This document shows, in pieces, positions 2,905 to 41,999 of a DNA stretch of 53,643 nt. Numbering within the stretch: position 1 is the stretch's first letter; the number at the start of each line of letters is the position of its first letter. The stretch comes from a virus (lineage: Duplodnaviria > Caudoviricetes), in the IMG/VR virus record IMGVR_UViG_3300034268_000054, positions 1 to 53,643 of that record; one strand, written 5' to 3'. Both the position numbers and the translations under genes were made by a program. The notes beneath the pieces were generated by a model that did no database searches, had not been told where the DNA came from, and saw only the letters and a program-made list of their open reading frames with translations.

Positions 2905-3804
2905 TTGAACGGTGGACTTGAGCTAATTCAACGGCTCGCTCCTCTTGCCGCGGGAGAATTGATCGATCCGCCGGCCGAGCCGAGCCTCCTGCTTGACTGC
3001 AAGGAATTCGGAGGAACATCTACCGTCCCCGTAAGCTTCCGCGCGGCGGCGTGGGCAGCGGAGTACGTGAGATCCCACAGGGGCGGGGCAAGTCCAGCAT
3101 GGCTTCACCTGGGGCATCCCAAGCTCACCGACTGGTCGATGGAAAAGGTGCTCTACTTCTTTCGCGACCAAAAGAAAAACGGCTTCATGTCTCTGGCCGG
3201 AAGGAATGAGCAGTTGTGCCCAGACCCCCATATCAACCTCTGGGTGTCGGCCGTGCTTTCGATCCAAAAGGGAGCTAAGGAATTCGGCCACAAGGAAGTT
3301 TACGACCTCGCCTCCTGGTGGCTGAGAAAGGTCGCGGCGACCTGGAAGGCCGGTATGACGCCCGAGGGGGACGTATTCATGGTGGGGGCCATGTCAGGCA
3401 AGACCCCCCATACGGTTGTCGGCTCGCTAATTCTCCGCGAGCTGCTGGGAATCGAGCAGCCCGTGGGAATCTTGTGGGATGACGTGCGGTACACAGCCGC
3501 GAGGCTGGCCCGAGAGATGATTCAGGCCGGAGACGATCTCGGCGGCGCGGCGCGAGAAATCGATCTCCCCTTCATGCGGGTGCCCGTGGCCGTCTTCCGC
3601 TACGACGGAGGACACCTCGCCCAGGCGGACGACCCTGGGCAAAGGCTCGATCTGCACGAGCAGTGGTGCTCATGGGTACAGGTCGAATATCACCGGCTCC
3701 GGAGACACGACGTGACATTCGAGCGGGCATGGAGGACTGATCCGCCGCTTCCTCCTCCGGCCATCAAAGCCTTCTTTCAGTCACCGCTTTTGCGAGACGT
3801 ATAG
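2905..3804 (+). CDS. Hypothetical protein, cytoplasmic paralog of secreted 6080..7093
   Basis: GAGGAGG RBS with TTG start; shares EYVR..RGG, LCxDPH, AGDDLGGAA and LHEQ blocks with 6080..7093. Confidence 0.8.
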   Translation: MNGGLELIQRLAPLAAGELIDPPAEPSLLLDCKEFGGTSTVPVSFRAAAWAAEYVRSHRGGASPAWLHLGHPKLTDWSMEKVLYFFRDQKKNGFMSLAGRNEQLCPDPHINLWVSAVLSIQKGAKEFGHKEVYDLASWWLRKVAATWKAGMTPEGDVFMVGAMSGKTPHTVVGSLILRELLGIEQPVGILWDDVRYTAARLAREMIQAGDDLGGAAREIDLPFMRVPVAVFRYDGGHLAQADDPGQRLDLHEQWCSWVQVEYHRLRRHDVTFERAWRTDPPLPPPAIKAFFQSPLLRDV

Positions 3805-4790: not shown

Positions 4791-5048
4791 ATGCACGAGT
4801 TTTACTTCGATGACTTCGACAGCGTGACCTGGGATTACGTGGAGGATCTTCTCGACTCCGGCGAGTACGGCGACTTCGAGGATGACGATCCGGAGTCCTA
4901 CCTCGAATTCGACATGACCTACAATCCGTTCGATATAGGCGAGGACGAGCATCACTCCTTCGGTGCCGTCCGCCGCTTCCTTCTGGAGTCGGGCGTCGAT
5001 GAGGATGATGAGGCCGCCAAGATCTTCCTCACCGACCGCGACGACTAA
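4791..5048 (+). CDS. Highly acidic small protein
   Basis: AAGGAGG RBS; about 30 D/E versus 4 K/R in 85 aa. Confidence 0.75.
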   Translation: MHEFYFDDFDSVTWDYVEDLLDSGEYGDFEDDDPESYLEFDMTYNPFDIGEDEHHSFGAVRRFLLESGVDEDDEAAKIFLTDRDD

Positions 5049-5068
5049 GCGACAGATCGAGCGATAAC

Positions 5069-5114
5069 AAAAAAGGCCGGTATCCAGGGTAACTCCCGGA
5101 TACCGGCCTTTTTT
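5069..5114. terminator. Bidirectional intrinsic terminator between convergent blocks
   Basis: AAAAAAGGCCGGTATCC...GGATACCGGCCTTTTTT. Confidence 0.9.
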
Positions 5115-5122
5115 GCGTTTGC

Positions 5123-5716
5123 CTACGTTGCCGTCACAAGCCAGTCGTCAACAGTGGATGCGATGCCGCCGAATCCGTTCACGATGATGCCGACTTGAGG
5201 GTTCGTCAAGAGAGCGCTGCTTACCTCGGTGTGCTGGTGTCCCAGCGGTCCCGTCGCAGTGATGACGTTGCCCTTTGCTTCGAGCGTCACGGTCCCCGTG
5301 CTGCCGGGAAGCAGAGGTCCCTTGAACGTATCGGGACCGCCGTTTACTAAGGACATTTGCCAGCCGCTGTTCGCGAAGTCGTAAAAGACTTCCCAATAAT
5401 GACTGTTGTCCGACCTGCGGATCAGAAGCCCGATTAGATTCTCGACGTGAGTGACGTTGACGCTCAATTTCACGTCGGCCGAGCCGACATCCATGAAGGC
5501 GTGACGGATCACCGGATCAGTCCGGCTGAGGCTGTAGCTTTGAATCGTAAAACCCGCAGTTCCTCCCGAGCTTTGCGACCACGCCGGCCCCTTATCCGGC
5601 GAGTGACTGAGCAGCGCGGTTCCGTTCGCGCTGGTGAACGTGTCCCGAGACAATATCCGAATGGTTGGGCCGTCGTCAGCCTGACTTGAGATGAAGGGGG
5701 AGAGGCTGAGCCTCAC
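5123..5716 (-). CDS. Beta-rich hypothetical protein, possibly virion/receptor-binding
   Basis: DTFTSANGTALLSHSPDKG..W start followed by a beta-sandwich-like pattern; coupled to the upstream ORF. Confidence 0.55.
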   Translation of the reverse strand: MRLSLSPFISSQADDGPTIRILSRDTFTSANGTALLSHSPDKGPAWSQSSGGTAGFTIQSYSLSRTDPVIRHAFMDVGSADVKLSVNVTHVENLIGLLIRRSDNSHYWEVFYDFANSGWQMSLVNGGPDTFKGPLLPGSTGTVTLEAKGNVITATGPLGHQHTEVSSALLTNPQVGIIVNGFGGIASTVDDWLVTAT

Positions 5717-12084: not shown

Positions 12085-15000
12085 TTACTGGTCGTTCTCC
12101 GCCGCCTGGAGGAAGTCGCGAACGGCCAAATTGGTTGTGCCGGCCACCTGAGTAGCCATGGTGTCGATGTCGAGCAGAAGGTGCGCTCGATCCTGGGGGG
12201 TCAACCCTTCGGAAGCCATTATCTGACGCCGCGCGGTTCTCAGCTTGGCGAGCTTCTTCTTCGTCTCCGAAAGGATTGAGCTTGCCACGATACCCGGGTT
12301 CTTCTTCATCACGTCCAGGTAGGCTTCAGCGTTCCCCTTCTTCTTGAGGTCCGACATGGTTGTCTTGGCGATCCCAACCTCTTTCTCAAGCTTGTAGAAC
12401 TCAGCCACCGGCCTAGATCCAAAGCCGATGGGCCTTGCGCTCCGGAACCCGAGAAACGTTGCAACGCCAAGAGGATCGCTCGCGACTTTCTGGTCCTGCC
12501 CCATGGCTTTGTCCGCCAGGGTCATACCCTGCTTTCCCAGGGTGGCGAAGGTTCCCTCGACCATGTGCTTCGCGATGTACGGCGAAGTCCCGGTCATCTT
12601 CCCGAGCGCCAGCGCCGAAGGCCCGAGCGTGTCCTCCCCCTGGTACTCCGGGAGAATGTCCTGCTCGCCCTCGGGAATCACCGGAGCGTCGCGGAAGGTG
12701 TCGTAGTTGAAAGCCGACTCGGCCATCGGCTCGAAGGCGGTCGGGATGAGGTCGATATAGTTCTTCGGATTGAACGGCGTGTAACCATCAACGCCAGCAC
12801 CAGCAAGGTAATGCAAGGGAGTCGCCTCAACAACCTGATTAAGGAACGCCTTGCCGGCCTCCGGGTCCTTGCCGTTGACGTGCTGCAACATCTTCTCCGC
12901 GCCATACCCGAACAGAACGTTCATCAAACCGATCGGCCGCGGAATACGCAGGTAGCTTCCGTCAGAGAACTTGTGGGGGTGATAGAACATCGCCTTGTCC
13001 CACTCCTGAAGCTTCTGGTAGTCCTCGTCATCCTTGTTGATGGCGTAGTTAATCATGGCCGGGAGAGTCACATAAGCGAGCAGCTTCAGTCCGGTTGCGA
13101 CAGGACGCTCCGTCATCCTCTTGCGGAAGATGTCGATATCCTGAAGCTCAGCGTTAGCGAACGCTTCGATCATGTTCCACTTCTGGGCCGAGTTTCCGTA
13201 CCTCCTGAAATCGATCGTGATGTCTCTTGCCTCGACGCCGGCTTCCATCTGCGTCGCCCCGCCCTCGCGGGCTCGGATGTACGATCCAACGCGAGTGCCT
13301 AGCTCAAGCTGCTTCGACAAGATCGAAAGCGGGAACAGCGCACCCTCTCTCCGAATGAAGCCGCGGAAATCCTTGTAGATCTGCCCCGGCCCCTTATCCT
13401 TCGTCAAGTCTTGCAGCTCGTACGCGGCCCCCTTCATGTCCACTGACACCTTGTCGCCCTGCAATGCGCCGACCGAATGCATCTCATCGTAGAAATCCGC
13501 AAGGTGCGGAGCGAGTCGCTTGGCGAAGGGGCTCGCGGCGACCATTCCCTTCACGAGGTCGTAGTAGGGAACGTAACCATACTTCGAGTTGACAGCCGCG
13601 GTCTGCTGGTCGCGAAGGGGGTTGCGGAGAATGAACCCGAGCCCCAGGGTCGCGCCGGCTCGACGCATCGAAGCGAAGAACGACAGGCCCTTCATGATGA
13701 GATCAGCCTGCCCAGGATTCAGAGACTCCAGCGCAGACATGACTTCGTTCGACGCGCGGTATGCGTACCGCTCGCCATTCCGGAACACAGCGAATGTGTC
13801 CTTCTTTTCGAGCACCATCGGGGCGTTTTTGAGAGGCTTGCCGTTCTGCGTCACCTGCTCAACTTCGTTCACGTTTCCGTTGGCATCCGCGAGGTCGGCC
13901 AGATAGTTCCGAATCCTCTGGCGGTCTACCCACTTCTGAATCTGCTGCGCCTTGAGCACCATAGACTCCAGGGGATTGACGATCCCGGCGTCGATGTCGC
14001 TGTGAATCTTTCCAACCGGATTCTTTTTGCCTGTCGTGTTGACCGGCTTCAAGTCCCCGTTCAGCTCCTCCATCAACCGGAAGAATGGCGCGTACTTCTC
14101 GTTCTGATCCAGAATTGCCTGATACTTCTCCTTCGAGAGGAATCCGACCTCGCGAAGGGGATCAAGAACCGCACGCTTCGACCAGTCGCGCACGTCGTCA
14201 GCAAGACCGGTCAACTCGTTAATACGCGTTCCCCACCGGCTCTCGATCATCTGCTTCGTCTCCCTGGCGCGCTGCACTGCGTCAGGATTCACGTCAATCG
14301 CTCCGGCCAAGCTCGGGCGCTTCGGGATAGCGGCCTTCGCGTTCTCATACGCCTGCATCCGAGCGACCCGGGTTGCACGGTCGGGCGACTTGGTTTGCAG
14401 GTCCAGCTTCGCCTGCCTCGCGACATTCAGGGCATTCCGGTAAGCGCCCTTCTCGGCGGCGTACTGCGCCTCCGAAGCCTGACGCCTGTCGTGAAGCTCG
14501 ATCTGCCGCTCCGCCGCCATGTAACGCGAGAGGTCTTTCATCGTTTCGGAATCAACGCCGCCGATGATCTGCTTCAGCCCTCGCCCGGTGTACCGATAGC
14601 CCCCGATATTCGGATCGTAGATCCTGGTACCGCGAGTGATCGGGTATCGAGCGATGTCAGCGACGCCTCTGCTGAGGGAGACCAGCCTGGGAAGCGTCTC
14701 GTCTCCGACCTTCTTCGCCACCCTTACGAGAGGCGCCTCCCGATCAAACCACTGGTCATAGAGATGACGGCCGAAGTTCTGAATTGCTTCCGAGAACGTC
14801 TTGCCGTTATTGACGCTGCTGTAATCCGTGATGTCCTGGTCGTTCGGGTAGACCACTTTGGCAGGTGTCGGATTCTTTTTCCAGTTTGCCGGGTTGAACA
14901 TCGCCGTGTTAATGGCACCGGCCTGTCCGCTCATCTCCGGAGAAGCCCCGGGCGCCTGTACTCGCGGAGCCTGAAGGTTGTTCCTGGCATACGATCCGCC

Positions 15001-17679
15001 AAGAAGGGCTGCAAGCTCGTCATCGATCTCAGGAGCATCGATCGCATGGGTGTCCGGCGTCAGCTCGGCCCGATCTGTCATCGGATGAACCGGAACGTGT
15101 TCGTCCGCGCCCATCGCCATCAAGGCTCTCGTCTGTGTCGCGTTCGGCCTCCCGCCCTCCACTCGTACCCTACCGTCCGCGCCGATCACCGCCTTTACTT
15201 CTCCAGGGTTGACCCTCACGTCAACCGCTGACACATCGTTAATGATCGGAACGATCTGGCCGCCCGGGGTGATGCGCAGGTACTGCTCTTTCTTTGCTAC
15301 CCGGTTAATAGCTTCCGGCGACACGTCCGATCCGCCGTGATCCATGGCGTCGGCAATGGTCGGGTCCTCTTCGCGCGTCACCTGTTCGATCCGCTGGACA
15401 AGCTCCTCAGGCAGCAAACCCATCTCTTCTGGAAGCAGGCCGGCTTTCTGTTCGGCATACGGCCGAGCTTGAGCCGGAACGAAGTCGGCATCGCCCGCGA
15501 CCGGCATCGACCCGTCCGGGCGCCGAAGCTGAGGTCCGAAGTTCACCCAGGAGTTCTGACCGCGCGTCTCCGTCGTTAGCGCTCGACGCGCACCCTCGGA
15601 ATACATCTTGGCGTGCGTCTGATAGGCGTTCTCCTCGCCGCGGGGACCGAACTGATATCCCTCCTTGGCGTGGCCGAAGTAATCATGGACGGCGCGAAAG
15701 ACATCGTTGTAAGTGAGTGGTACTCCGCCAGCTTCCACACCAACCCTCTCGGCCAGTGGATGATCCGCCGGCATATCGCCACCAGTGAAAAAGAACAGGT
15801 GGTTGTTGTCGCGGACATCTGCGATCATCTGATCCGAGCTGCCGTAGGGTTGGCCCTCGTTAACCCACGGCTCAAACTTGACGCCGCGACCGGTCAGGAA
15901 TTGCCACTGGTCAAGAGTTTCGTTCTTGAAGTCCTGGTATGCCCTGGCAACCTCGGGATTGTTAGGATCGTGCCGCAGAGAATCGTAGGCGTCGGCCACC
16001 CTCTTCCCGAGTTCCTGATCCAGTGACGAATACTTGCCCTCGAAGTCCAGCGGAGGAGCGCCATTGCGAGAGACGTATTCTCTCGCGATTTGGCGAACCT
16101 GTTCGTTCGGAGCCGTGGGCGGCTTGCGGGACGGGCCTACGATCTGAGGCGTTGCGGCCTCGGCCGTGGCGTCCGCCATGTCGGCCGGCAAAGTTGCTCC
16201 GGTTTCCCTGGCAATCTTCTCAAACGTCTTGTTCCACTTCGCCTGGACTCGGCGCTGAGCCTCCTGAGTTACGGCCTGCCGAACCTCTTCCAGTCGGCTC
16301 GCCTTTGAATCGAGCCCGTCCGGTAGAAACGCTTCCGAACGCAGGCGCTCGCGAGCCCTGGCATCGGAGATGACCGCCGGCTGCGCCTTGCTCAGCTCGT
16401 CGGGAAGGAATGCATCACCAGCGCTTTGCTGCTCGATCAGCCAGTCCGCATCCTTAATTTGGGAGCCGAGTTTGGACAGCGCCTTTTTCGTCTCAACATC
16501 CAGCTCGACCGAGTACGCGTCCATCGCGGCTCGCCACGTCGAGTCGTAGTCAGCAACCCGGCGCGCTGCTACATCCGCATCGCTCGATACTCCGCTCTCT
16601 CGATTGGAGGCAACTTTCTCCGTGACCTCGGTGCTCGCGTGGAAGCGAGCCGACACACCGTGAAGAGCGCCGCCCGTAAAGCCGCCGACGATGCCGGAAT
16701 TCATCATGCGGTCAGCAAGGTTTCCAGCCTCTCGCCCCTGAAGGCGCTGCCACGCGTATGAGTTGGCTTCCTGAAGACTTTCGGTCAGCCCCTCCTTCAG
16801 GGCAGCATTCCGAATGTCTCTCCACAGCGCGTAGCTGGCTGCGTGAGGGAGCTTCGTTCCGATCACTCCCTCGATGCCGACGCGCTCCAGAATGCCGCCG
16901 ACGACGCCTTGACCGATCGCACCGAGAAGCGCGGTTCTCTTGTCCGTTCCGTCCTCTTTGGCTTGGCTGTACTCAGGAAGGCCGGCGATGGCGCCGCCGA
17001 GCATCACTGCCCCGGTTCCGCCGCCCGTCGCGAGAATGGCAAGGGTTGAGGGAAGGCCGCGAGTAACGGCCTCAGTCACGGCACTTGCCTTGCCGAAGAA
17101 ACCCTTGCGGTTCTTTAGATCATTGATGACGCCCTCGCTCTCGGGAGCGAGTTCGTCGGCGCCCGACTTCATGTCGGCTCGAATGCTCGCGGCGCCGCTT
17201 CCGTAGGCCCTGACGCCCTGGAGGTACTTATCCTTTACACCTTCAAGCGCGTCGATCCCGAGCGTAGGAATATGAGATACGATGCCGGCATTGATGTCGG
17301 CGCCCAGCTCGGCCGCGGCAGGCACGATAGCCGCCAAGTCCACGATTCCCGCGCCGAGCGAACGAGCGTGACGCTTGAAGCCGCCAGACTCGTCCTTTCC
17401 GTACATTTGCTCTTGCTGCGCACGGGGATCAACGTCGATGGTGGGCAAGGCGCCACCGGCTCGCAGCTCTTCGCCGTACCGGGACATTTCGCGGTGCTGA
17501 CGGCCCGGCTTGAATCGCTGAAGTGGGACGGTCTGCTGTCCGCCGGCCGCAGCGATGTCCGCGCCGAGTAGCGAAAGATCACGGCGCGGACGGCTTGGCA
17601 GAAAGCTGTCCCACAGATTTTCAGGCTCTTCGTCGGCAGCTCCGCCATTGGACAGAAAACTGTCCCACAGATTGCTCAT
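12085..17679 (-). CDS. Large polyvalent internal virion/ejection protein with LPD38-like C-terminus
   Basis: 1864 aa; last gene of the ejection cluster; YLRIPRPIG and NYDTFRDAPVIPE C-terminal motifs; internal HDYFGH domain. Confidence 0.8.
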   Translation of the reverse strand: MSNLWDSFLSNGGAADEEPENLWDSFLPSRPRRDLSLLGADIAAAGGQQTVPLQRFKPGRQHREMSRYGEELRAGGALPTIDVDPRAQQEQMYGKDESGGFKRHARSLGAGIVDLAAIVPAAAELGADINAGIVSHIPTLGIDALEGVKDKYLQGVRAYGSGAASIRADMKSGADELAPESEGVINDLKNRKGFFGKASAVTEAVTRGLPSTLAILATGGGTGAVMLGGAIAGLPEYSQAKEDGTDKRTALLGAIGQGVVGGILERVGIEGVIGTKLPHAASYALWRDIRNAALKEGLTESLQEANSYAWQRLQGREAGNLADRMMNSGIVGGFTGGALHGVSARFHASTEVTEKVASNRESGVSSDADVAARRVADYDSTWRAAMDAYSVELDVETKKALSKLGSQIKDADWLIEQQSAGDAFLPDELSKAQPAVISDARARERLRSEAFLPDGLDSKASRLEEVRQAVTQEAQRRVQAKWNKTFEKIARETGATLPADMADATAEAATPQIVGPSRKPPTAPNEQVRQIAREYVSRNGAPPLDFEGKYSSLDQELGKRVADAYDSLRHDPNNPEVARAYQDFKNETLDQWQFLTGRGVKFEPWVNEGQPYGSSDQMIADVRDNNHLFFFTGGDMPADHPLAERVGVEAGGVPLTYNDVFRAVHDYFGHAKEGYQFGPRGEENAYQTHAKMYSEGARRALTTETRGQNSWVNFGPQLRRPDGSMPVAGDADFVPAQARPYAEQKAGLLPEEMGLLPEELVQRIEQVTREEDPTIADAMDHGGSDVSPEAINRVAKKEQYLRITPGGQIVPIINDVSAVDVRVNPGEVKAVIGADGRVRVEGGRPNATQTRALMAMGADEHVPVHPMTDRAELTPDTHAIDAPEIDDELAALLGGSYARNNLQAPRVQAPGASPEMSGQAGAINTAMFNPANWKKNPTPAKVVYPNDQDITDYSSVNNGKTFSEAIQNFGRHLYDQWFDREAPLVRVAKKVGDETLPRLVSLSRGVADIARYPITRGTRIYDPNIGGYRYTGRGLKQIIGGVDSETMKDLSRYMAAERQIELHDRRQASEAQYAAEKGAYRNALNVARQAKLDLQTKSPDRATRVARMQAYENAKAAIPKRPSLAGAIDVNPDAVQRARETKQMIESRWGTRINELTGLADDVRDWSKRAVLDPLREVGFLSKEKYQAILDQNEKYAPFFRLMEELNGDLKPVNTTGKKNPVGKIHSDIDAGIVNPLESMVLKAQQIQKWVDRQRIRNYLADLADANGNVNEVEQVTQNGKPLKNAPMVLEKKDTFAVFRNGERYAYRASNEVMSALESLNPGQADLIMKGLSFFASMRRAGATLGLGFILRNPLRDQQTAAVNSKYGYVPYYDLVKGMVAASPFAKRLAPHLADFYDEMHSVGALQGDKVSVDMKGAAYELQDLTKDKGPGQIYKDFRGFIRREGALFPLSILSKQLELGTRVGSYIRAREGGATQMEAGVEARDITIDFRRYGNSAQKWNMIEAFANAELQDIDIFRKRMTERPVATGLKLLAYVTLPAMINYAINKDDEDYQKLQEWDKAMFYHPHKFSDGSYLRIPRPIGLMNVLFGYGAEKMLQHVNGKDPEAGKAFLNQVVEATPLHYLAGAGVDGYTPFNPKNYIDLIPTAFEPMAESAFNYDTFRDAPVIPEGEQDILPEYQGEDTLGPSALALGKMTGTSPYIAKHMVEGTFATLGKQGMTLADKAMGQDQKVASDPLGVATFLGFRSARPIGFGSRPVAEFYKLEKEVGIAKTTMSDLKKKGNAEAYLDVMKKNPGIVASSILSETKKKLAKLRTARRQIMASEGLTPQDRAHLLLDIDTMATQVAGTTNLAVRDFLQAAENDQ

Positions 17680-36314: not shown

Positions 36315-36403
36315 GATCTCCTCTCAACTCAGATCTTGATATGGATGGTGTACAACATACCTGCCCTGTTTCCCAGGTCGGGATACTGTCTATTGCGGGT
36401 TGA

Positions 36404-36456
36404 AGTGTGCCATAGGGGGCATACCTACGTCTCGCGTTTGTGTCACGTATGACACA
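36404..36456 (-). promoter_or_regulatory. Promoter at head of late block with perfect-arm dyad (site 6)
   Basis: TGTGTCA-TACG-TGACACA then AACGC, GAGACG-18-CACACT with extended TG. Confidence 0.6.
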
Positions 36457-36903
36457 GAAGGCCGGCCGGCCTATTAGAAAAAATGCTTGTCAGGTCTACG
36501 GTGGTTAAGCGGGGACCGGGGCGATGGCGGATGGGCTCACCCCCCCCTGTGGAAAAGCTGCGGATATCCCGCACCAAACTACCGCGGCAGTGGGACGGCG
36601 CCGATGTATCTACTACCTCAGTCGTTGTGCGGGTGGCGGTGTGACGTGGCGTGTGCCATTCGTCCAGGCTAGCAGTCTAAGCCATTGCATTGCCTCCACT
36701 TACGTGCGCGCCGCAGTAGATAGGGAATCTGCTGGCGAAGGGGCTGGGGGGATCTTGCTCATTTCGGGGGATACCTTGCTTCCCCGCTACTCCTATCCCC
36801 TAAGCTGGGCGCCTTCCCTCTTTACCTTCCTTTGTGGAAGTACACTCACGCTAGGCGAAGAAGACACGCGGACCGAGCTTAGCTCCCCTCTCCCCTGGGA
36901 TGA

Positions 36904-36960
36904 CGGGGGATCGCTTGGGATGTCCGGTATCGCGTGGCACGGCGGGGGATCGCTTGGGAT
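36904..36960 (+). repeat. 18-nt direct repeat in non-coding region
   Basis: CGGGGGATCGCTTGGGAT at 36904-36921 and 36943-36960. Confidence 0.85.
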
Positions 36961-37309
36961 TCCAGCTTGCCCTATCGTCTGGTATCCCTCCTATTCCCTC
37001 CATGCTCTTCTCTTGGGTCCTGGTATAACCGGAATACCTGGGATAACTGGTATCTCCCTCTATTCTCTCTATGTTTCTCTATGTCTCTCTATCCTCTCTT
37101 ATCTCCCCTTATAGCTGGTAACACTTCACCCACTAATCAGGGTATCGCCTTGTTTCCCCTTATTCACAGGTAATACCCTAAGCCCCTTTATTCTAATAGG
37201 TTAAGTAGGGTATCTCCAGGTATACCCCTATATAGTCCTTATATAGGCATCCCCCGGCCCTGAAGCCGAGGGATTAGGCGCCTTGCTTAGGTGGGGAGGC
37301 TAGGGGAAA

Positions 37310-37657
37310 TCAGTATTCGACTACGGCGGCGGAACAGAAACGGCACTTCCCTTGCGGGGGATAGTCGTTGCCTTGCCAGTGTAGTCTAGGACACTGGTAG
37401 CGCTTGGGACGTTCGATAGCTATCACGCTTCCCCCGAATATCTCCAGAACTTGCTCGACAACCCCAGGAGGAGCGAACGGCGGCGCGGCTCCTGGTAGCG
37501 GCGGCGCGGGCGGCGCCACTCTCGCGAGTAGGTTACCCGCCTGCCGCGCTCCTGGCGCCGTGGGCGCGAGATCGAGCGGGAGGACGGGCGTTCCCTCCGG
37601 CCGTGGCGAGATCGAGCCCTGGCGGGGCTGTGGCGCCTGCTTTGTTTCTTCAGTCAA
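37310..37657 (-). CDS. Pro-rich protein with C-terminal Cys/His cluster
   Basis: AAAGGAGG RBS with TTG start; CPRLHW...CRFC. Confidence 0.6.
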   Translation of the reverse strand: MTEETKQAPQPRQGSISPRPEGTPVLPLDLAPTAPGARQAGNLLARVAPPAPPLPGAAPPFAPPGVVEQVLEIFGGSVIAIERPKRYQCPRLHWQGNDYPPQGKCRFCSAAVVEY

Positions 37658-38125
37658 TCCGGGTTCCCTCCTTTCGCTGGCGAGTGTACCACGAGACCCG
37701 CGTCCTGGTGCCGACTACCTGGGGCGTTGAAGGCCCGAATCCCCCGAGTCAACCCCCGAAACGAAGATTCTCACCACGTCGCAAACCCTTACGGGGCTTG
37801 CGTTCTGCACGCCACTGCCAACTTACTGCGCACCTTCGGCCTACTCGGCCTATTGCGCCGACTCGGCCGATTTGGTTTACTCTGCACCGTCAGCGGGGCG
37901 GCGAGGGAAAGCGAGCTGACAAAGCAAGCAAGCGGTTCTTTGAAATCCAGCGCTCGGTCCCCAGGTTGGGGGAGTCAGTAAGCCTTGCACCTGCTGCCGC
38001 AACGTCGAGAGACGGTTAACCGGTTAGCAGGAGGAAGCCGCAAACGGAAGACAAGGAATCGTGACCTAAACAAAAGCCCCCCGTAAAAAACCCCTGTTCT
38101 ACAGAGCGCGAGTGATCTTGACTTA

Positions 38126-38301
38126 GCAGTGAGATCACTTAAGGGGAGAGCATAAGGAGACTACTACCTTATGACCTACTCTAGCGCGGCGGCTCTGATC
38201 CTGAAGTCCCTCGCCTCAATTCCTCGCGAAGCAGCACCACCCGTGAAAGCAAGCAAGTAAGGACAAACGGCTAACGCTCTCCCCTTAAGCGGTTTCACTG
38301 C
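38126..38301 (+). other. 26-bp long-range RNA stem enclosing a small ORF
   Basis: 38126-38151 pairs with 38276-38301 (2 G-U pairs, 1 mismatch). Confidence 0.75.
38171..38260 (+). CDS. 29-aa small ORF (not in ORF track)
   Basis: AAGGAG RBS; MTYSSAAALILKSLASIPREAAPPVKASK. Confidence 0.45.
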   Translation: MTYSSAAALILKSLASIPREAAPPVKASK

Positions 38302-38320
38302 ACTTAACAAGGAGAGGCAA

Positions 38321-38749
38321 ATGATCCACCTTTCAGATGACGGAACGCTGGACACTGTTTTCCGCTGCGATCAATGCGGAGAAGAGATCCGCTACACGTT
38401 CGACGGTGAAGGATCTTACGACGACTTTGTAGCCTGGGCAATTCAGGACGCGGAGGAGGAGCACGCTTGTGAAGGCGAGGAGGACTCTAGCGTACCGAAT
38501 CTCGACGGGATGAGTCCCGATGAGTTAGGGAAGTTTTGGGCTCGCCATCAAAGGGGATGGAAGCGGAAAGAGTTATTTCCCGAGGGCGGGAGGGGTACCT
38601 CGAAAGCAACGGCGGCACTAGCAAACTACGCAATCAACAAAACGACCGCCATGTCCTGCCGCGCTCGGGGCGATATTCAAGCTGCCGAGATTTACGAAAA
38701 GGTTTGCGAGAACATCTACTCCGCTCTTCCCGAGTGGGCACGGTGGTAA
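38321..38749 (+). CDS. Early hypothetical protein
   Basis: AAGGAGAG RBS; CDQC; C-terminal LPEWARW. Confidence 0.75.
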   Translation: MIHLSDDGTLDTVFRCDQCGEEIRYTFDGEGSYDDFVAWAIQDAEEEHACEGEEDSSVPNLDGMSPDELGKFWARHQRGWKRKELFPEGGRGTSKATAALANYAINKTTAMSCRARGDIQAAEIYEKVCENIYSALPEWARW

Positions 38750-38750
38750 C

Positions 38751-38814
38751 GGCGAAACGGGGAGCGATCCCCGTCCGTTGCGGGTGACTCCCGCGACGCT
38801 GACGAGCCAAGTCA
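38751..38814 (+). ncRNA. Type II hammerhead ribozyme, copy 1
   Basis: GGC-GAAA, stem III with GCGA loop, GUC (38773-38775), 9-bp stem I, CUGACGA-GCC, tail AGUCA complementary to loop UGACU. Confidence 0.92.
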
Positions 38815-38843
38815 ATCAATCCAAAAACACAGCGGGAGGAAGT

Positions 38844-39233
38844 ATGCGGCGATTCCTGGCGAAGCGGGATGACTGGTGCATGATCTCGGGCGAGCTGTCC
38901 GGAATGACTCAAGATGAAAGAGAGACGGCCACGGCGAAGCTCCTCGCGGAGATCCTAGACGGTGGTTTCGCTCCCCTCGAATGCGAGGGAGTCTACAAGG
39001 GGGAGAGCGAGCGATCCTTCCTTGTGATCGGAATCTCTCGGGATGAGGCGCTTCGCCTCGGCCGGATGTTTCACCAGGAGTCGATCATGCTCCCCGCCGG
39101 TCTCACCTACTGCGATGACGGCCGAACGGTGCCGATTCAAAGCATCGAAGATGGGGCTTCAGGCGATTCCTACTCACGGGTGAACGTGGCCGGGCGGCGA
39201 CAGGATCTTACGATCACGCTGGCGGCGGCGTAG
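38844..39233 (+). CDS. Candidate SAM lyase (T3 SAMase / DUF3293-like fold)
   Basis: GVYKGESERSFLV...LGRMFHQESI matches the GxY..ExS..FxQES pattern; ATG 38844 with GGGAG RBS. Confidence 0.6.
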   Translation: MRRFLAKRDDWCMISGELSGMTQDERETATAKLLAEILDGGFAPLECEGVYKGESERSFLVIGISRDEALRLGRMFHQESIMLPAGLTYCDDGRTVPIQSIEDGASGDSYSRVNVAGRRQDLTITLAAA

Positions 39234-39236
39234 GGC

Positions 39237-39300
39237 GGCGAAACGGGGAGTGATCCCCGTCCGTTGCGGGTGACTCCCGCGACGCTGACGAGCCAAGTCA
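39237..39300 (+). ncRNA. Type II hammerhead ribozyme, copy 2
   Basis: Identical to copy 1 except a GUGA tetraloop; GUC at 39259-39261. Confidence 0.92.
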
Positions 39301-39327
39301 AAAACGCGTATAACCGGAGACAAGTCA

Positions 39328-39936
39328 ATGGACAAGCTAACGCCCGAGATGGTGCATGAGATCGCTTCCGCTTTCAGCAAGGTAACCGGCCAAAAGTGGA
39401 ACGCTAAGCCTCGGTCAGAGGATGAGCGGTTCGACAAGCGGGCGAGGATTGTCCGCGCCGATGGGGCATACATCATGCTCTGGACTGTCTGGAATGACGC
39501 GGGGAAGTTGTCGATCACGGGCGGACTTGAGGCGCCGATTCCCGAGGGTTACTCACCGCTGCATCGTAGTCAACCGCAGTCGATCGGCGTCTCTCTGGCG
39601 AAAGGATCGGAGAAGGTCGCCCGAGACATCTCCCGGAGGCTCCTTCCGGAAATCGAGTCGTACATCGTGGAGGAGCGCGAGCGCCGAGAGGATCACACGG
39701 CGAAGAGGGATCGGATGTTTTCGGTCGCGATTGCGGTCGCACGCGCCTTGAAAGACAAACGCCCGAGCGAACAGGGTAAGGATGTTTATTACCTCTCGGG
39801 ACGCGGAGAGGACGACTCCAGGATCGATGCAAAGGTGCATTACGGGGGGCGCGTCACTTTCGATTTCAGCGTAGAGGGGGAGAGCGCGCCGAAGGTGGCG
39901 GAGGCGATCCTGGCCGCGATTCACGGGAAGGGGTGA
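39328..39936 (+). CDS. Early hypothetical protein
   Basis: GGAG RBS; follows ribozyme 2. Confidence 0.75.
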   Translation: MDKLTPEMVHEIASAFSKVTGQKWNAKPRSEDERFDKRARIVRADGAYIMLWTVWNDAGKLSITGGLEAPIPEGYSPLHRSQPQSIGVSLAKGSEKVARDISRRLLPEIESYIVEERERREDHTAKRDRMFSVAIAVARALKDKRPSEQGKDVYYLSGRGEDDSRIDAKVHYGGRVTFDFSVEGESAPKVAEAILAAIHGKG

Positions 39937-39939
39937 CGC

Positions 39940-40155
39940 GTGAGCATTAAGCGAACGCCTCTTACGGGGGCTCCGCTTGAGCTTCCCGATCCGCCGGTCC
40001 CTCGGCGATTTGCGCTCTGCGATCGGGACCAGCCTTGCACCCATGAGCACACGCCATTCCGGGGTCCGATGCCTTGCACCGGCCCGCTTGTGTGCTCCGC
40101 CTGCGGATCGCTTTGGGATGCCGACTCGGGAAAGCTTCTCAAGAGAGGCGAATGA
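39940..40155 (+). CDS. Small Cys/His-rich protein
   Basis: C..C.H and CTGPLVCSACG; stop 1 nt before ribozyme 3. Confidence 0.65.
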   Translation: MSIKRTPLTGAPLELPDPPVPRRFALCDRDQPCTHEHTPFRGPMPCTGPLVCSACGSLWDADSGKLLKRGE

Positions 40156-40156
40156 C

Positions 40157-40220
40157 GGCGAAACGGGGAGCGATCCCCGTCCGGTACGGGTGACGCCCGT
40201 GCCGCTGACGAGCCAAGTCA
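40157..40220 (+). ncRNA. Type II hammerhead ribozyme, copy 3
   Basis: Intact core; GUC at 40179-40181; stem I CGGUACGGG/CCCGUGCCG shows compensatory changes. Confidence 0.92.
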
Positions 40221-40239
40221 ATAAAGAAAGGAAGGAGCT

Positions 40240-40785
40240 ATGGCACCCGTCTTTGACTCTGCGGAATTGGAAGATGGCCTAGTTTGCGTCCGATATCTGA
40301 CGCCGGGCGGTAGGGGGCGATTCAAGGTATCACCTGAAGTCTTTAGGTTGAAGGAAACAAAGAGAGGTTTTGACCTTGAAGTGATGGAGATGGAGTGGAA
40401 CCGGCGAAAGCAGGCGCATCTCCCCACGAAGGTGCGAACGGTTCTCCTGAAAATGGAGCGAACGGATGCCGAAGCGCTCGCGAGCCTCGGGGTGTCGATT
40501 GAACGTAAACGCGAGAAACCCGCGCCGAGCGGCTGGAAAAAGGGAATTGTCAGAATCATAGATCCCGAGGATCGGCGGCGGCGGCATGACGTTCTGGCGG
40601 AGATCTTTCAGGATTACGCGGTTGCTCGTGACGACTTCAGCGTAGTTCGCGTCTACCACATCCCCAACGGCGAGGGCGTTGCCGCGAAGAATCCGAACGG
40701 CGATCCCCGGCCCTGGTACAGCATCTCTGAGGCGAAGCGCGCAATTCAGGCTCATTACGAACACGACCACGCCCAGGCGGCGTAA
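40240..40785 (+). CDS. Early hypothetical protein
   Basis: AAGGAG RBS; follows ribozyme 3. Confidence 0.75.
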   Translation: MAPVFDSAELEDGLVCVRYLTPGGRGRFKVSPEVFRLKETKRGFDLEVMEMEWNRRKQAHLPTKVRTVLLKMERTDAEALASLGVSIERKREKPAPSGWKKGIVRIIDPEDRRRRHDVLAEIFQDYAVARDDFSVVRVYHIPNGEGVAAKNPNGDPRPWYSISEAKRAIQAHYEHDHAQAA

Positions 40786-40797
40786 GGAGATAAGGCA

Positions 40798-40998
40798 ATG
40801 GCACGGACAGAGACGGCCGGAGTTGAGGAGCGGACCGAGCGGCGACACGAGCGGACGGCGATCTGCGGGAACTGCGGGGGAACGTTCAAGCCCTCGGCGA
40901 AGGGGCAGCGATTCTGCGATGATGATTGCGAAAGGGGCTCGGCGCTCCACATTCCAACGCGGCCGGGCGTTCCTCTCGGCTCGGCGGCGTTGGGATGA
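40798..40998 (+). CDS. Small zinc-ribbon-like protein
   Basis: CGNCGGTF..QRFCDDDC; AAGGAG RBS. Confidence 0.65.
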   Translation: MARTETAGVEERTERRHERTAICGNCGGTFKPSAKGQRFCDDDCERGSALHIPTRPGVPLGSAALG

Positions 40999-41165
40999 TG
41001 ATGCAAAGGTTTTGGGAAAAGTCGGTCGTTGCAGCGCTCAAGGCCGGCATGACGGCTCACTGCGCCATCGCGTTCGCCGATGCCGCGGTCTTGGCCCTCG
41101 CCGAGCGAGCCGGAGGCGTCGGAAACGAAGACTCGCAATTCATCGCGTCAATTAGGGCGCTCTAG
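40995..41165 (+). CDS. Small hypothetical protein
   Basis: ATGA overlap with the previous gene. Confidence 0.5.
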   Translation: MMMQRFWEKSVVAALKAGMTAHCAIAFADAAVLALAERAGGVGNEDSQFIASIRAL

Positions 41166-41198
41166 GAGCGCAATCCTCTTCAACAGGAGGTGATGCAA

Positions 41199-41261
41199 GG
41201 CGAAACGGGGCTCTGCCCCGTCTGGCGCGGGTGACTCCTGCGCCACTGACGAGCCAAGTCA
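41199..41261 (+). ncRNA. Type II hammerhead ribozyme, copy 4
   Basis: Intact core; GUC at 41220-41222; stem I UGGCGCGGG/CCUGCGCCA; stem III closed by C-G with a UCU loop. Confidence 0.9.
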
Positions 41262-41295
41262 AAAACACTTACCAACGCAAAGGGAGGACGAAGGA

Positions 41296-41556
41296 ATGCC
41301 GCACTACAAGGTGGTGGGAAAGATCGAGGCACGCGTGACGAAGTACGTCGAGGCGGCGGACCCGGAAGCCGCGTTCGCTGCCGCGTGCGACGCCTGGGAA
41401 TTCGATGATCTCGACGCTTCCGAGGGATCGGTGATTTACGATCCGTCGATCACTGAGGTCCCCGAAACTACGAGCGAGACGCACTACGGCCCCACGGCTC
41501 CGGCCGCGTGGTTTGCTCCGGGAGGCGACGACCCTGCCGCTCCTCTCGCAAGCTGA
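41296..41556 (+). CDS. Small acidic early protein
   Basis: GGGAGG RBS; VEAADPEAA motif; follows ribozyme 4. Confidence 0.7.
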   Translation: MPHYKVVGKIEARVTKYVEAADPEAAFAAACDAWEFDDLDASEGSVIYDPSITEVPETTSETHYGPTAPAAWFAPGGDDPAAPLAS

Positions 41557-41660
41557 TCGAAACGACTTGAGGGGCGTGCCGCCTGGGGTGGCATGCCTCC
41601 TTCTTTTCTGGGTGTTCCTCGCGTTGACTTTCACAACCTGTGACACGAAGGAGAAACAGA

Positions 41661-41999
41661 ATGCTGACCTCGCTGGCGCACGAAGTGCCGACGCCTTTGT
41701 CCCTCCTCCTCAACCCTGGAGTAAGTGATCTCTTCCGCCCTATCGGCGCTCCCGATCCTGGCGCGCTGCTTCAGGCGCAAGTCGAAATCCTCGGCGCTCG
41801 TATCTTGATCTACCTGATCGAAGTGGACTCCACGGGCGCGGGATGGCAGACGTTCAACCCGGCGAGCACGTTCGATGACGAGGAGTATTCACACCTTCTC
41901 GAATTGCTCGGCGACGACGAAGACTTCGAGACGATCAATTTCAACGGACGCAACTACATCCTCCTGGCGGTTCCCGCGCAGGGTCAGGAAAGGAGCTAA
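41661..41999 (+). CDS. Acidic hypothetical protein
   Basis: AAGGAG RBS before ATG 41661. Confidence 0.65.
   Translation: MLTSLAHEVPTPLSLLLNPGVSDLFRPIGAPDPGALLQAQVEILGARILIYLIEVDSTGAGWQTFNPASTFDDEEYSHLLELLGDDEDFETINFNGRNYILLAVPAQGQERS

Follow-up and report, generated by a model that had tools for sequence, protein, structure and literature searches.

Tandem hammerhead ribozymes have been described in prophages, where several of them were reported to lie on either side of single genes or of short runs of genes and were proposed to process long phage transcripts into operon- or gene-length messenger RNAs (mRNAs) (Perreault et al., 2011, PMC3088659). According to the same report, three tandem arrangements underwent cleavage while ~2-kb fragments were transcribed in vitro, and the trio surrounding the anti-restriction gene ardA in A. 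tumefaciens was cleaved in vivo in E. coli, tandems being also described in C. scindens and A. caulinodans (PMC3088659). In the haloviruses HF1 and HF2, the hammerhead HHphage lies a few nucleotides (nt) before the first gene of an early polycistron, and a 5' end was mapped within 3 nt of its cut site (PMC3088659). Besides, three type II hammerheads close to phage-like genes of D. vulgaris cleave in vivo, as demonstrated with cyPhyRNA-seq by the capture of 2',3'-cyclic phosphate and 5'-OH ends (PMC8782182). The present analysis concerns four type II hammerheads, HH1 to HH4, found within 2.5 kb on the + strand of a phage DNA of 53,643 nt (IMG/VR virus record IMGVR_UViG_3300034268_000054, Caudoviricetes), hereafter the window, i.e. 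the whole stretch that was analysed. These are probably functional ribozymes of a single phage operon, which would cleave themselves co-transcriptionally at four predicted GUC sites and thereby split the transcript.

Like the prophage arrays reported by Perreault et al. (2011), which include pseudoknotted type II members, the four copies are intergenic hammerheads on one strand of phage DNA with the same proposed role, and an anti-restriction or anti-restriction-type gene directly follows one of the ribozymes in both cases. Unlike the A. tumefaciens trio around ardA, this phage has a gene with an S-adenosylmethionine (SAM) lyase fold and four copies that resemble each other far more than those of a typical array; it is a different phage, an uncultured soil contig for which no relatives were found and which is known from sequence alone. 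The D. vulgaris hammerheads share the type II topology and the phage-like neighbourhood, two of the three lying about 300 nt apart, whereas they belong to a bacterial chromosome, only these two are clustered, and the corresponding paper deals with detection rather than function (PMC8782182). As for HHphage, it is a single ribozyme with a variant core in an archaeal virus, in contrast to the array of the window (PMC3088659). Four same-strand copies around gene blocks in a phage context (portal, capsid, Prim-Pol/helicase and LPD38) make this locus a good further example of a known arrangement and not a new mechanism. The novelty that the initial annotation implied for a ribozyme-segmented phage mRNA is not supported, the arrangement, the proposed role and the cleavage of comparable arrays having all been published in 2011 (PMC3088659). 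A literature search, beyond the reach of which most subscription journals lie, found no paper testing this role in a phage and none tying ribozyme arrays to counter-defence further than the remark on ardA.

In T7 and T3, the early polycistron is cut by the host RNase III within intergenic double-stranded stems, and the resulting units keep a terminal hairpin and bear 5'-phosphate and 3'-OH ends. In the window, the RNA would cut itself and leave 5'-OH and 2',3'-cyclic phosphate ends, and the intergenic elements are hammerheads instead of long RNase III-type stems; the comparison with T7 processing that had been proposed for this locus is therefore apt as an analogy of function and fails as a kinship. 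RiboJ is an engineered insulator derived from a plant satellite RNA. As with RiboJ, a hammerhead ahead of a coding sequence would remove the upstream context and leave a 5' hairpin, the window element being a natural phage one.

Structure of the four hammerheads and their counterparts in other viral loci

38751..38814, + strand: HH1, type II hammerhead, predicted cut after 38775, Rfam 33.5 bits; stem II 38751-53/38806-08, stem III 38757-38774, GUC 38773-75, stem I 38776-38798, core CUGACGA 38799-38805, pseudoknot tail GUCA 38811-14
39237..39300, + strand: HH2, type II hammerhead, predicted cut after 39261, Rfam 35.7 bits
40157..40220, + strand: HH3, type II hammerhead, predicted cut after 40181, Rfam 29.8 bits
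41199..41261, + strand: HH4, type II hammerhead, predicted cut after 41222, Rfam 40.9 bits

Direct reading and alignment agree with the initial annotation on four + strand copies of 63-64 nt including the pseudoknot tail. All of them present the same order of elements, namely GGC (5' strand of stem II), GAAA, the stem III hairpin, GUC, the stem I hairpin, CUGACGA, GCC (3' strand of stem II) and AAGUCA. The topology is the type II circular permutation, stems I and III being closed by loops and stem II being open. Stem III is a G+C-rich helix of 7 base pairs (bp), with a GNRA loop in three copies and a triloop in HH4, while stem I counts 9 bp with a UGAC(U/G) loop and stem II 3 bp in all four copies. 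As had been annotated, GAAA, GUC and the CUGACGA core are invariant and stem II has 3 bp, and the GUC triplets end exactly at 38775, 39261, 40181 and 41222, where cleavage was predicted. Inside the ribozyme, HH1 and HH2 differ by a single loop III base, and HH3 exhibits two compensatory pair changes in stem I compared to both. Considering the acceptance criteria of Perreault et al. (2011, PMC3088659), i.e. core positions and core-adjacent Watson-Crick pairs, the core is intact in the four copies (C3-U4-G5-A6-N7-G8-A9, G12-A13-A14, the A15.1-U16.1 pair and C17) and the adjacent pairs are all Watson-Crick (G-C, C-G or U-A in HH4, and A-U), with no mispair at 10.1-11.1, 1.1-2.1 or 15.1-16.1. The complementarity of loop I UGAC(U/G) to the 3' tail (A)GUCA was recovered as Watson-Crick pairing in every copy, HH3 having 4 pairs and the other three copies 5; most type II members, though not all, are reported to have a pseudoknot of at least 4 pairs (PMC3088659). 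Single-sequence folds give stems I and III, which are retained in both the minimum free energy and centroid folds of the 134-142-nt native contexts, and direct reading of the sequence revealed no U-tract after the ribozyme hairpins. Judged on the sequence, the identification as pseudoknotted type II hammerheads is correct.

With free stems, a core-motif pattern gave four matches when both strands of the 53.6-kb window were scanned and none in 100 dinucleotide-preserving shuffles, and a stricter, purpose-made descriptor retrieved the same four sites and no others in the window. The Rfam model Hammerhead_II (RF02276), whose gathering score is 37 bits, matched all four copies in an 8-kb search (E-values from 8e-6 to 7e-3), of which HH4 alone exceeds this score, the three sub-threshold copies being at 2e-4 to 7e-3; a scan of the whole window by E-value listed three of the four, HH3 being absent. 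Rfam scans of the whole window detected no other ribozyme family. Matches to Pxr, Moco riboswitch, mir-67, Cis90 and Thr_leader were discarded as chance, their scores being far under the cut-offs; the 3' part of the weak Pxr match overlies the terminator-like hairpin presented below.

Across the four copies, standard pairs occupy 91 of the 91 pair cells of the named structure, to be compared with 35-43% paired when the 3' partners are slid by 1-3 columns. The earlier claim that differences between copies keep the pairing is thus borne out without a single mispair, stem I showing three pairs changed on both sides (C-G/U-A, U-A/G-C and G-C/A-U) and two compatible changes on one side. Additional covariation, of a kind that the window copies cannot give, came from a metagenome contig (L134) with two CUGACGAGCCAAG-subtype hammerheads on the - strand (2406-2464 and 3507-3565), in which loop I and tail read UGAC/GUCA in one case and UGGC/GCCG in the other. 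This subtype occurs in two metagenome loci (L134 and L135), neither having genes in common with the window, and gave no match in genome contigs. A 17-base string of core plus tail encountered in nine viral loci (L125-L133) corresponds to chance matches within a coding region and not to hammerheads, and these loci account for nine of the 15 without any hit in the descriptor run. A further helix was considered across HH1, where, in the context fold, 38721-38732 anneals to the Shine-Dalgarno/ATG region of the gene that follows; its duplex energy is equalled by 8% of mismatched-partner controls and, over 270 hammerheads (266 from the survey below and 4 from the window), flank duplex energies average -17.6 kcal/mol against -17.0 for such controls (one-sided p = 0.12), so that it was treated as chance.

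How such elements are disposed elsewhere was surveyed by a pattern scan of IMG/VR yielding at least 120 loci, which were selected for at least one pattern match and do not represent a random sample. Among the 120 loci listed, the purpose-made descriptor found no hammerhead in 6, one in 50 and two or more in 64; four or more were present in 23, with a maximum of nine within 7 kb, and shuffled survey loci gave 0. All copies lie on one strand in each of the 64 multi-copy loci listed, with a median spacing of 711 nt. Regarding the 268 hammerheads among the matches listed, an open reading frame (ORF) of at least 40 amino acids (aa) begins within 120 nt downstream in 261, at a median distance of 25 nt from stem II (interquartile range 22-28); 254 have an upstream open frame nearby, and for 190 of these 254 the distance from its end to the ribozyme is at most 10 nt. 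Of the 268, 118 show a pseudoknot with 4 or more Watson-Crick pairs, compared with 14% for mismatched partners. Four ribozymes in 2.5 kb between genes are, in other words, an ordinary form of the element in phage contigs. The genes just downstream of hammerheads in the other listed viral loci have a median of 102 aa and are mostly without family; a Pfam-type family scan of 150 downstream ORFs, i.e. the 4 of the window and 146 sampled from 187 non-redundant ORFs elsewhere, named, among others, DUF932 (3), DUF7178 (2), DUF2786 (2), SprT-like (2), ArdA (1) and ArdC-N (1), which are too few for an enrichment test.

Operon layout and proposed segmentation of the transcript

38111..38139, + strand: perfect 8-bp inverted repeat AGTGATCT/AGATCACT around TTGACT, at the head of the unit
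38321..38749, + strand: gene before HH1, 142 aa with a Cys-rich N-terminus and without family; stop codon 1 nt ahead of HH1
38844..39233, + strand: sole gene between HH1 and HH2, 129 aa, DUF3293/S-AdoMet-lyase-like, predicted T3 SAM lyase fold
39328-39936, + strand: first gene between HH2 and HH3, 202 aa
39940-40155, + strand: second gene between HH2 and HH3, 71 aa, Cys-rich
40240-40785, + strand: first gene between HH3 and HH4, 181 aa
40798-40998, + strand: second gene between HH3 and HH4, 66 aa, CxxC...CxxxC
40995-41165, + strand: third gene between HH3 and HH4, 56 aa, its start overlapping the preceding stop
41296..41556, + strand: one gene between HH4 and the terminator-like site, 86 aa, without family
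41571..41609, + strand: strong intrinsic-terminator-like site, 13-bp stem (9 G-C pairs) and 3-nt loop, then CTTCTTTTCT

The ribozyme-bearing unit covers ~3.5 kb of the + strand, from about 38.1 kb to the terminator-like hairpin at 41.6 kb, which probably forms its 3' end. This hairpin shows base differences at 41584, 41587 and 41602 in two soil DNA runs (X2 and X5). At the other extremity, the inverted repeat at 38111-38139 may mark an operator or a promoter. All four copies are intergenic and on the coding strand, as initially annotated, and bound blocks of one, two and three genes within their 2.5 kb. HH1 to HH3 begin 1-3 nt past the upstream stop codon and HH4 33 nt past it; on the other side, the GUCA tails end 29, 27, 19 and 34 nt before the ATG, in agreement with the 19-34 nt first given, and a GGAG-type Shine-Dalgarno sequence precedes each of these post-ribozyme ATG. 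Every gap of more than 60 nt between genes of at least 56 aa in the unit holds a hammerhead, the remaining junctions being of 3 nt, 12 nt or overlapping. When the eight genes of the operon were searched against Pfam, PHROGs, NCBIfam, PADLOC and Atlas, seven received no function. The host-takeover character attributed to this operon is weakly supported: one gene of the eight has a recognisable fold, that of the T3 SAM lyase, and the other seven match nothing informative.

Upon emergence from the polymerase, each ribozyme would fold by closing stems I and III as hairpins, then the 3-bp stem II, and the pairing of loop I UGAC(U) with the (A)GUCA tail would align stems I and II, after which the RNA would cut itself following the C of GUC. 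Five RNAs would result, namely a leader with the gene 38321-38749, a second RNA of 486 nt (38776-39261) carrying the single SAM-lyase-fold gene, a third of 920 nt (39262-40181) with two genes, a fourth of 1041 nt (40182-41222) with three genes, and a fifth running from 41223 to the terminator with one gene. Each upstream product would finish with the G+C-rich stem III hairpin followed by UC bearing the 2',3'-cyclic phosphate, and in each downstream product the 5'-OH would sit on the first paired nucleotide of the 9-bp stem I hairpin, followed by the pseudoknot and its own Shine-Dalgarno/ATG. Units of one, two and three genes with a hairpin at each new RNA end, as the initial annotation had it, do follow from the geometry of the sequence. 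Hairpin, cyclic-phosphate and 5'-OH ends hinder 3' exonucleases and the 5'-monophosphate-dependent entry of RNase E. The likely benefit would be that gene blocks acquire defined, hairpin-protected ends and a 5' leader independent of the upstream sequence, so that stability and translation would be uncoupled between blocks. Cleavage of the window copies in vivo is inferred because members of their family cleave, and the cutting of the mRNA into units of one to three genes is plausible; a benefit of cleavage to the gene blocks is more speculative.

Objections and competing explanations

Several observations weigh against segmentation of the transcript by active ribozymes. Three of the four copies are under the Rfam gathering cut-off (35.7, 33.5 and 29.8 bits), the deficit residing in the stem and tail alignment with the core unaffected. 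No variation exists among the four copies in stems II and III or in the pseudoknot, and covariation within the set is confined to stem I. Besides, the copies are unusually alike, with an identity of 0.71-0.98 in their variable stem and loop parts, compared to a mean of 0.64 over 374 within-locus pairs of other viral arrays, in which 8% of pairs reach 0.8; such likeness is a sign that duplication or gene conversion took place recently in the phage, and the intactness of the copies may partly reflect this instead of long selection. A consensus promoter scan upstream of the operon, including 38111-38139, gave no site, and the transcription start was accordingly not found. Regarding stability, the fate of 5'-OH RNA differs among bacteria, RNase J1 degrading the 5'-OH product of glmS in B. 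subtilis. As this fate depends on the host, for which scans of genome contigs gave no match, a stabilising effect is not assured, and hosts with RNase J may degrade the 5'-OH RNAs.

A last objection arises from natural relatives. One contig in each of the runs X2 (depth 9.6) and X5 (depth 3.3), which belong to different studies, joins 39233 directly to 40203, with neither inserted letters nor common microhomology at the junction. This variant is devoid of HH2, of the genes 39328-40155 and of the 5' two-thirds of HH3, and CGCUGACGAGCC plus the tail are left between two genes, a remnant that reads as a natural ribozyme-dead junction. Its edges fall directly after a stop codon and inside HH3, unlike a clean ribozyme-to-ribozyme exchange. 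Two further runs (X3 and X4) provided 151-nt contigs identical to the window, and a search for sequencing runs containing 38300-41700 listed DNA runs but none of RNA. Judging from the deletion contigs, at least one natural lineage can do without the block and without cleavage at that junction.

The same facts could be read as those of recently duplicated hairpins serving as RNA stabilisers or as pause or recombination sites, with cores that are inactive or irrelevant in vivo: the copies are highly alike, down to the one base between HH1 and HH2, most score below the Rfam threshold and one junction was lost in relatives. This is nevertheless very unlikely considering that all 13 core positions are intact in each copy, that the stem I changes keep the pairing (3 double and 2 single compatible changes for 0 mispairs in 91 cells), that every copy has its pseudoknot, that no U-tract lies behind the hairpins, and that family members in a like context cleave in vitro and in vivo (PMC3088659, PMC8782182). 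The invariance of stem II and core also bears on what would happen after the cut, as it makes any pair of hammerhead halves compatible. Since each segment would begin with the 3' part of one hammerhead and finish with the 5' part of the next, its two ends could re-form a nicked hammerhead and give circular or spliced mRNAs via the reverse reaction or an RtcB-type ligase, for which hammerhead products bear the needed 5'-OH and 2',3'-cyclic phosphate ends (PMC8782182). The possibility was raised by Perreault et al. (2011), who did not detect spliced or circular products (data not shown there; PMC3088659); in addition, type II products would be joined by the 3-bp stem II alone, which should favour release, and the segments are long (486-1041 nt). 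Ligation after cleavage consequently appears highly improbable.

A proposal that extends the segmentation of the transcript, instead of opposing it, is that the hammerheads cleave but have mainly an evolutionary value, as insulators at module boundaries: each cassette would bring its own ribozyme and so have the same 5' end wherever it is recombined, the repeats also marking points of gain and loss of accessory or counter-defence cassettes. In agreement with this, the repeat unit stops sharply at the ribozyme edges and the flanking genes are unrelated, the genes flanked by published hammerheads are not constant (Perreault et al., 2011, PMC3088659), and relatives exist without the HH2-HH3 block. 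The small and mostly family-less genes downstream of hammerheads in other viral loci (median 102 aa) fit as well, the few named families being of typical accessory or anti-restriction kind (ArdA 1, ArdC-N 1, SprT-like 2, DUF932 3 and DUF7178 2; n=150), but such low counts do not allow statistics on enrichment. Moreover, the natural deletion runs from a stop codon into HH3 and not from ribozyme to ribozyme, and protein scans of viral, metagenome and genome contigs found no related phage genomes in which cassettes could be compared. As an account of what the array is mainly for, this is rather unlikely. Self-cleavage that splits the transcript into blocks thus remains the favoured explanation of the array, at the probable level given above.

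The phage, its SAM-lyase-fold gene and the significance of the array

The window, an IMG/VR virus record classed as provirus with an estimated completeness of 71%, is an incomplete uncultured soil phage. Its - strand encodes, at about 5-36 kb, a P22-type portal, a capsid protein and a 1864-aa protein with an LPD38 domain, and its + strand, at about 38-52 kb, an AAA ATPase, a DUF2201 metallopeptidase/VWA protein and a Prim-Pol/helicase, the ribozymes being located at the beginning of this + arm. Viral-contig scans with three single proteins, a metagenome-contig scan with the 181-aa protein, a genome-contig scan with the portal for host or relatives, and a blastn of 38300-41600 against phage records all returned no match. 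In one viral contig (L064:5670-9372), a type II hammerhead and a small ORF are followed by homologues of three window + arm genes in the same order (AAA ATPase, 294-aa protein and DUF2201 metallopeptidase/VWA protein; 29-34% identity), and a DUF2201 protein directly downstream of a hammerhead was also seen in the survey of viral loci.

Other features were recorded along the window. Within the structural arm, the 1864-aa protein (12085-17679, - strand) has the LPD38 (large polyvalent protein associated) domain at its C-terminus. Where + and - genes converge, weak Thr_leader matches on both strands at 5046-5144 (about 30 bits for a cut-off of 55) are most likely due to a terminator hairpin acting in both directions rather than to a leader. 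Between the two arms, about 2 kb (36330-38170) hold no convincing gene, many GGTATC/GGGATA-like words and tandem repeats at 36896-36960 (period 20), 37058-37092 (period 10) and 37836-37868 (period 9), and could be an origin or regulatory region. Dispersed direct repeats of 74-88% identity, namely 38004-38046/42274-42316 (43 nt), 37857-37882/46201-46226 (26 nt) and 38171-38186/45873-45888 (16 nt), may be phage regulatory sites; the first comprises the palindrome TAACCGGTTA and a Shine-Dalgarno-like AGGAG, directly before the start of the AAA ATPase.

The gene behind HH1 is the one of the operon for which a fold could be recognised. Its 129-aa product (38844-39233) matches Pfam DUF3293 above the cut-off and S-AdoMet_lyase just under it, and a profile built from 45 homologues matches the T3 SAM lyase chain 7OCK (E = 0.003). 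Its AlphaFold model reached a mean confidence (pLDDT) of 93.9, and the only strong Foldseek matches of this model in the PDB are T3 SAM lyase (8BB1, E = 3e-4; 7OCK, template modelling score 0.69), the next one being at E = 0.08. According to the model, the protein has the T3 SAM lyase fold, of anti-restriction type, the activity itself being predicted. In T3, the first early gene encodes a SAM-cleaving enzyme. Among the best 150 library matches of the window protein, 91 have its domain embedded in proteins of 600-4,638 aa, one of these large proteins also containing DUF7178.

From there, a wider idea may be put forward, if only tentatively and with some doubt: hammerhead arrays could do at the RNA level what the giant 'polyvalent' proteins do for phages and conjugative elements, each being a way of delivering together changeable small modules of early counter-defence. 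What supports it is the SAM-lyase fold after HH1, whose domain lies inside proteins of 600-4,638 aa, one of them with DUF7178, and the presence of DUF7178, ArdA and ArdC-N/SprT downstream of hammerheads in other viral loci, to which the published ardA case adds (PMC3088659).

A 2019 review considers the roles of bacterial self-cleaving ribozymes as largely elusive and repeats the idea of polycistron processing (PMC6765202), so that a clean example has some value. The phage being uncultured, direct experiments are confined to heterologous systems, for which four near-identical ribozymes, a terminator-bounded operon and an anti-restriction-type gene behind the first cut make up a compact construct for studying the effect of self-cleavage on how stable an mRNA is and how it is translated. 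Were the parallel with polyvalent proteins true, the ribozyme would give each cassette a context-free and immediately translatable mRNA, and ribozyme-bounded cassettes would become a practical signpost to new anti-defence genes.

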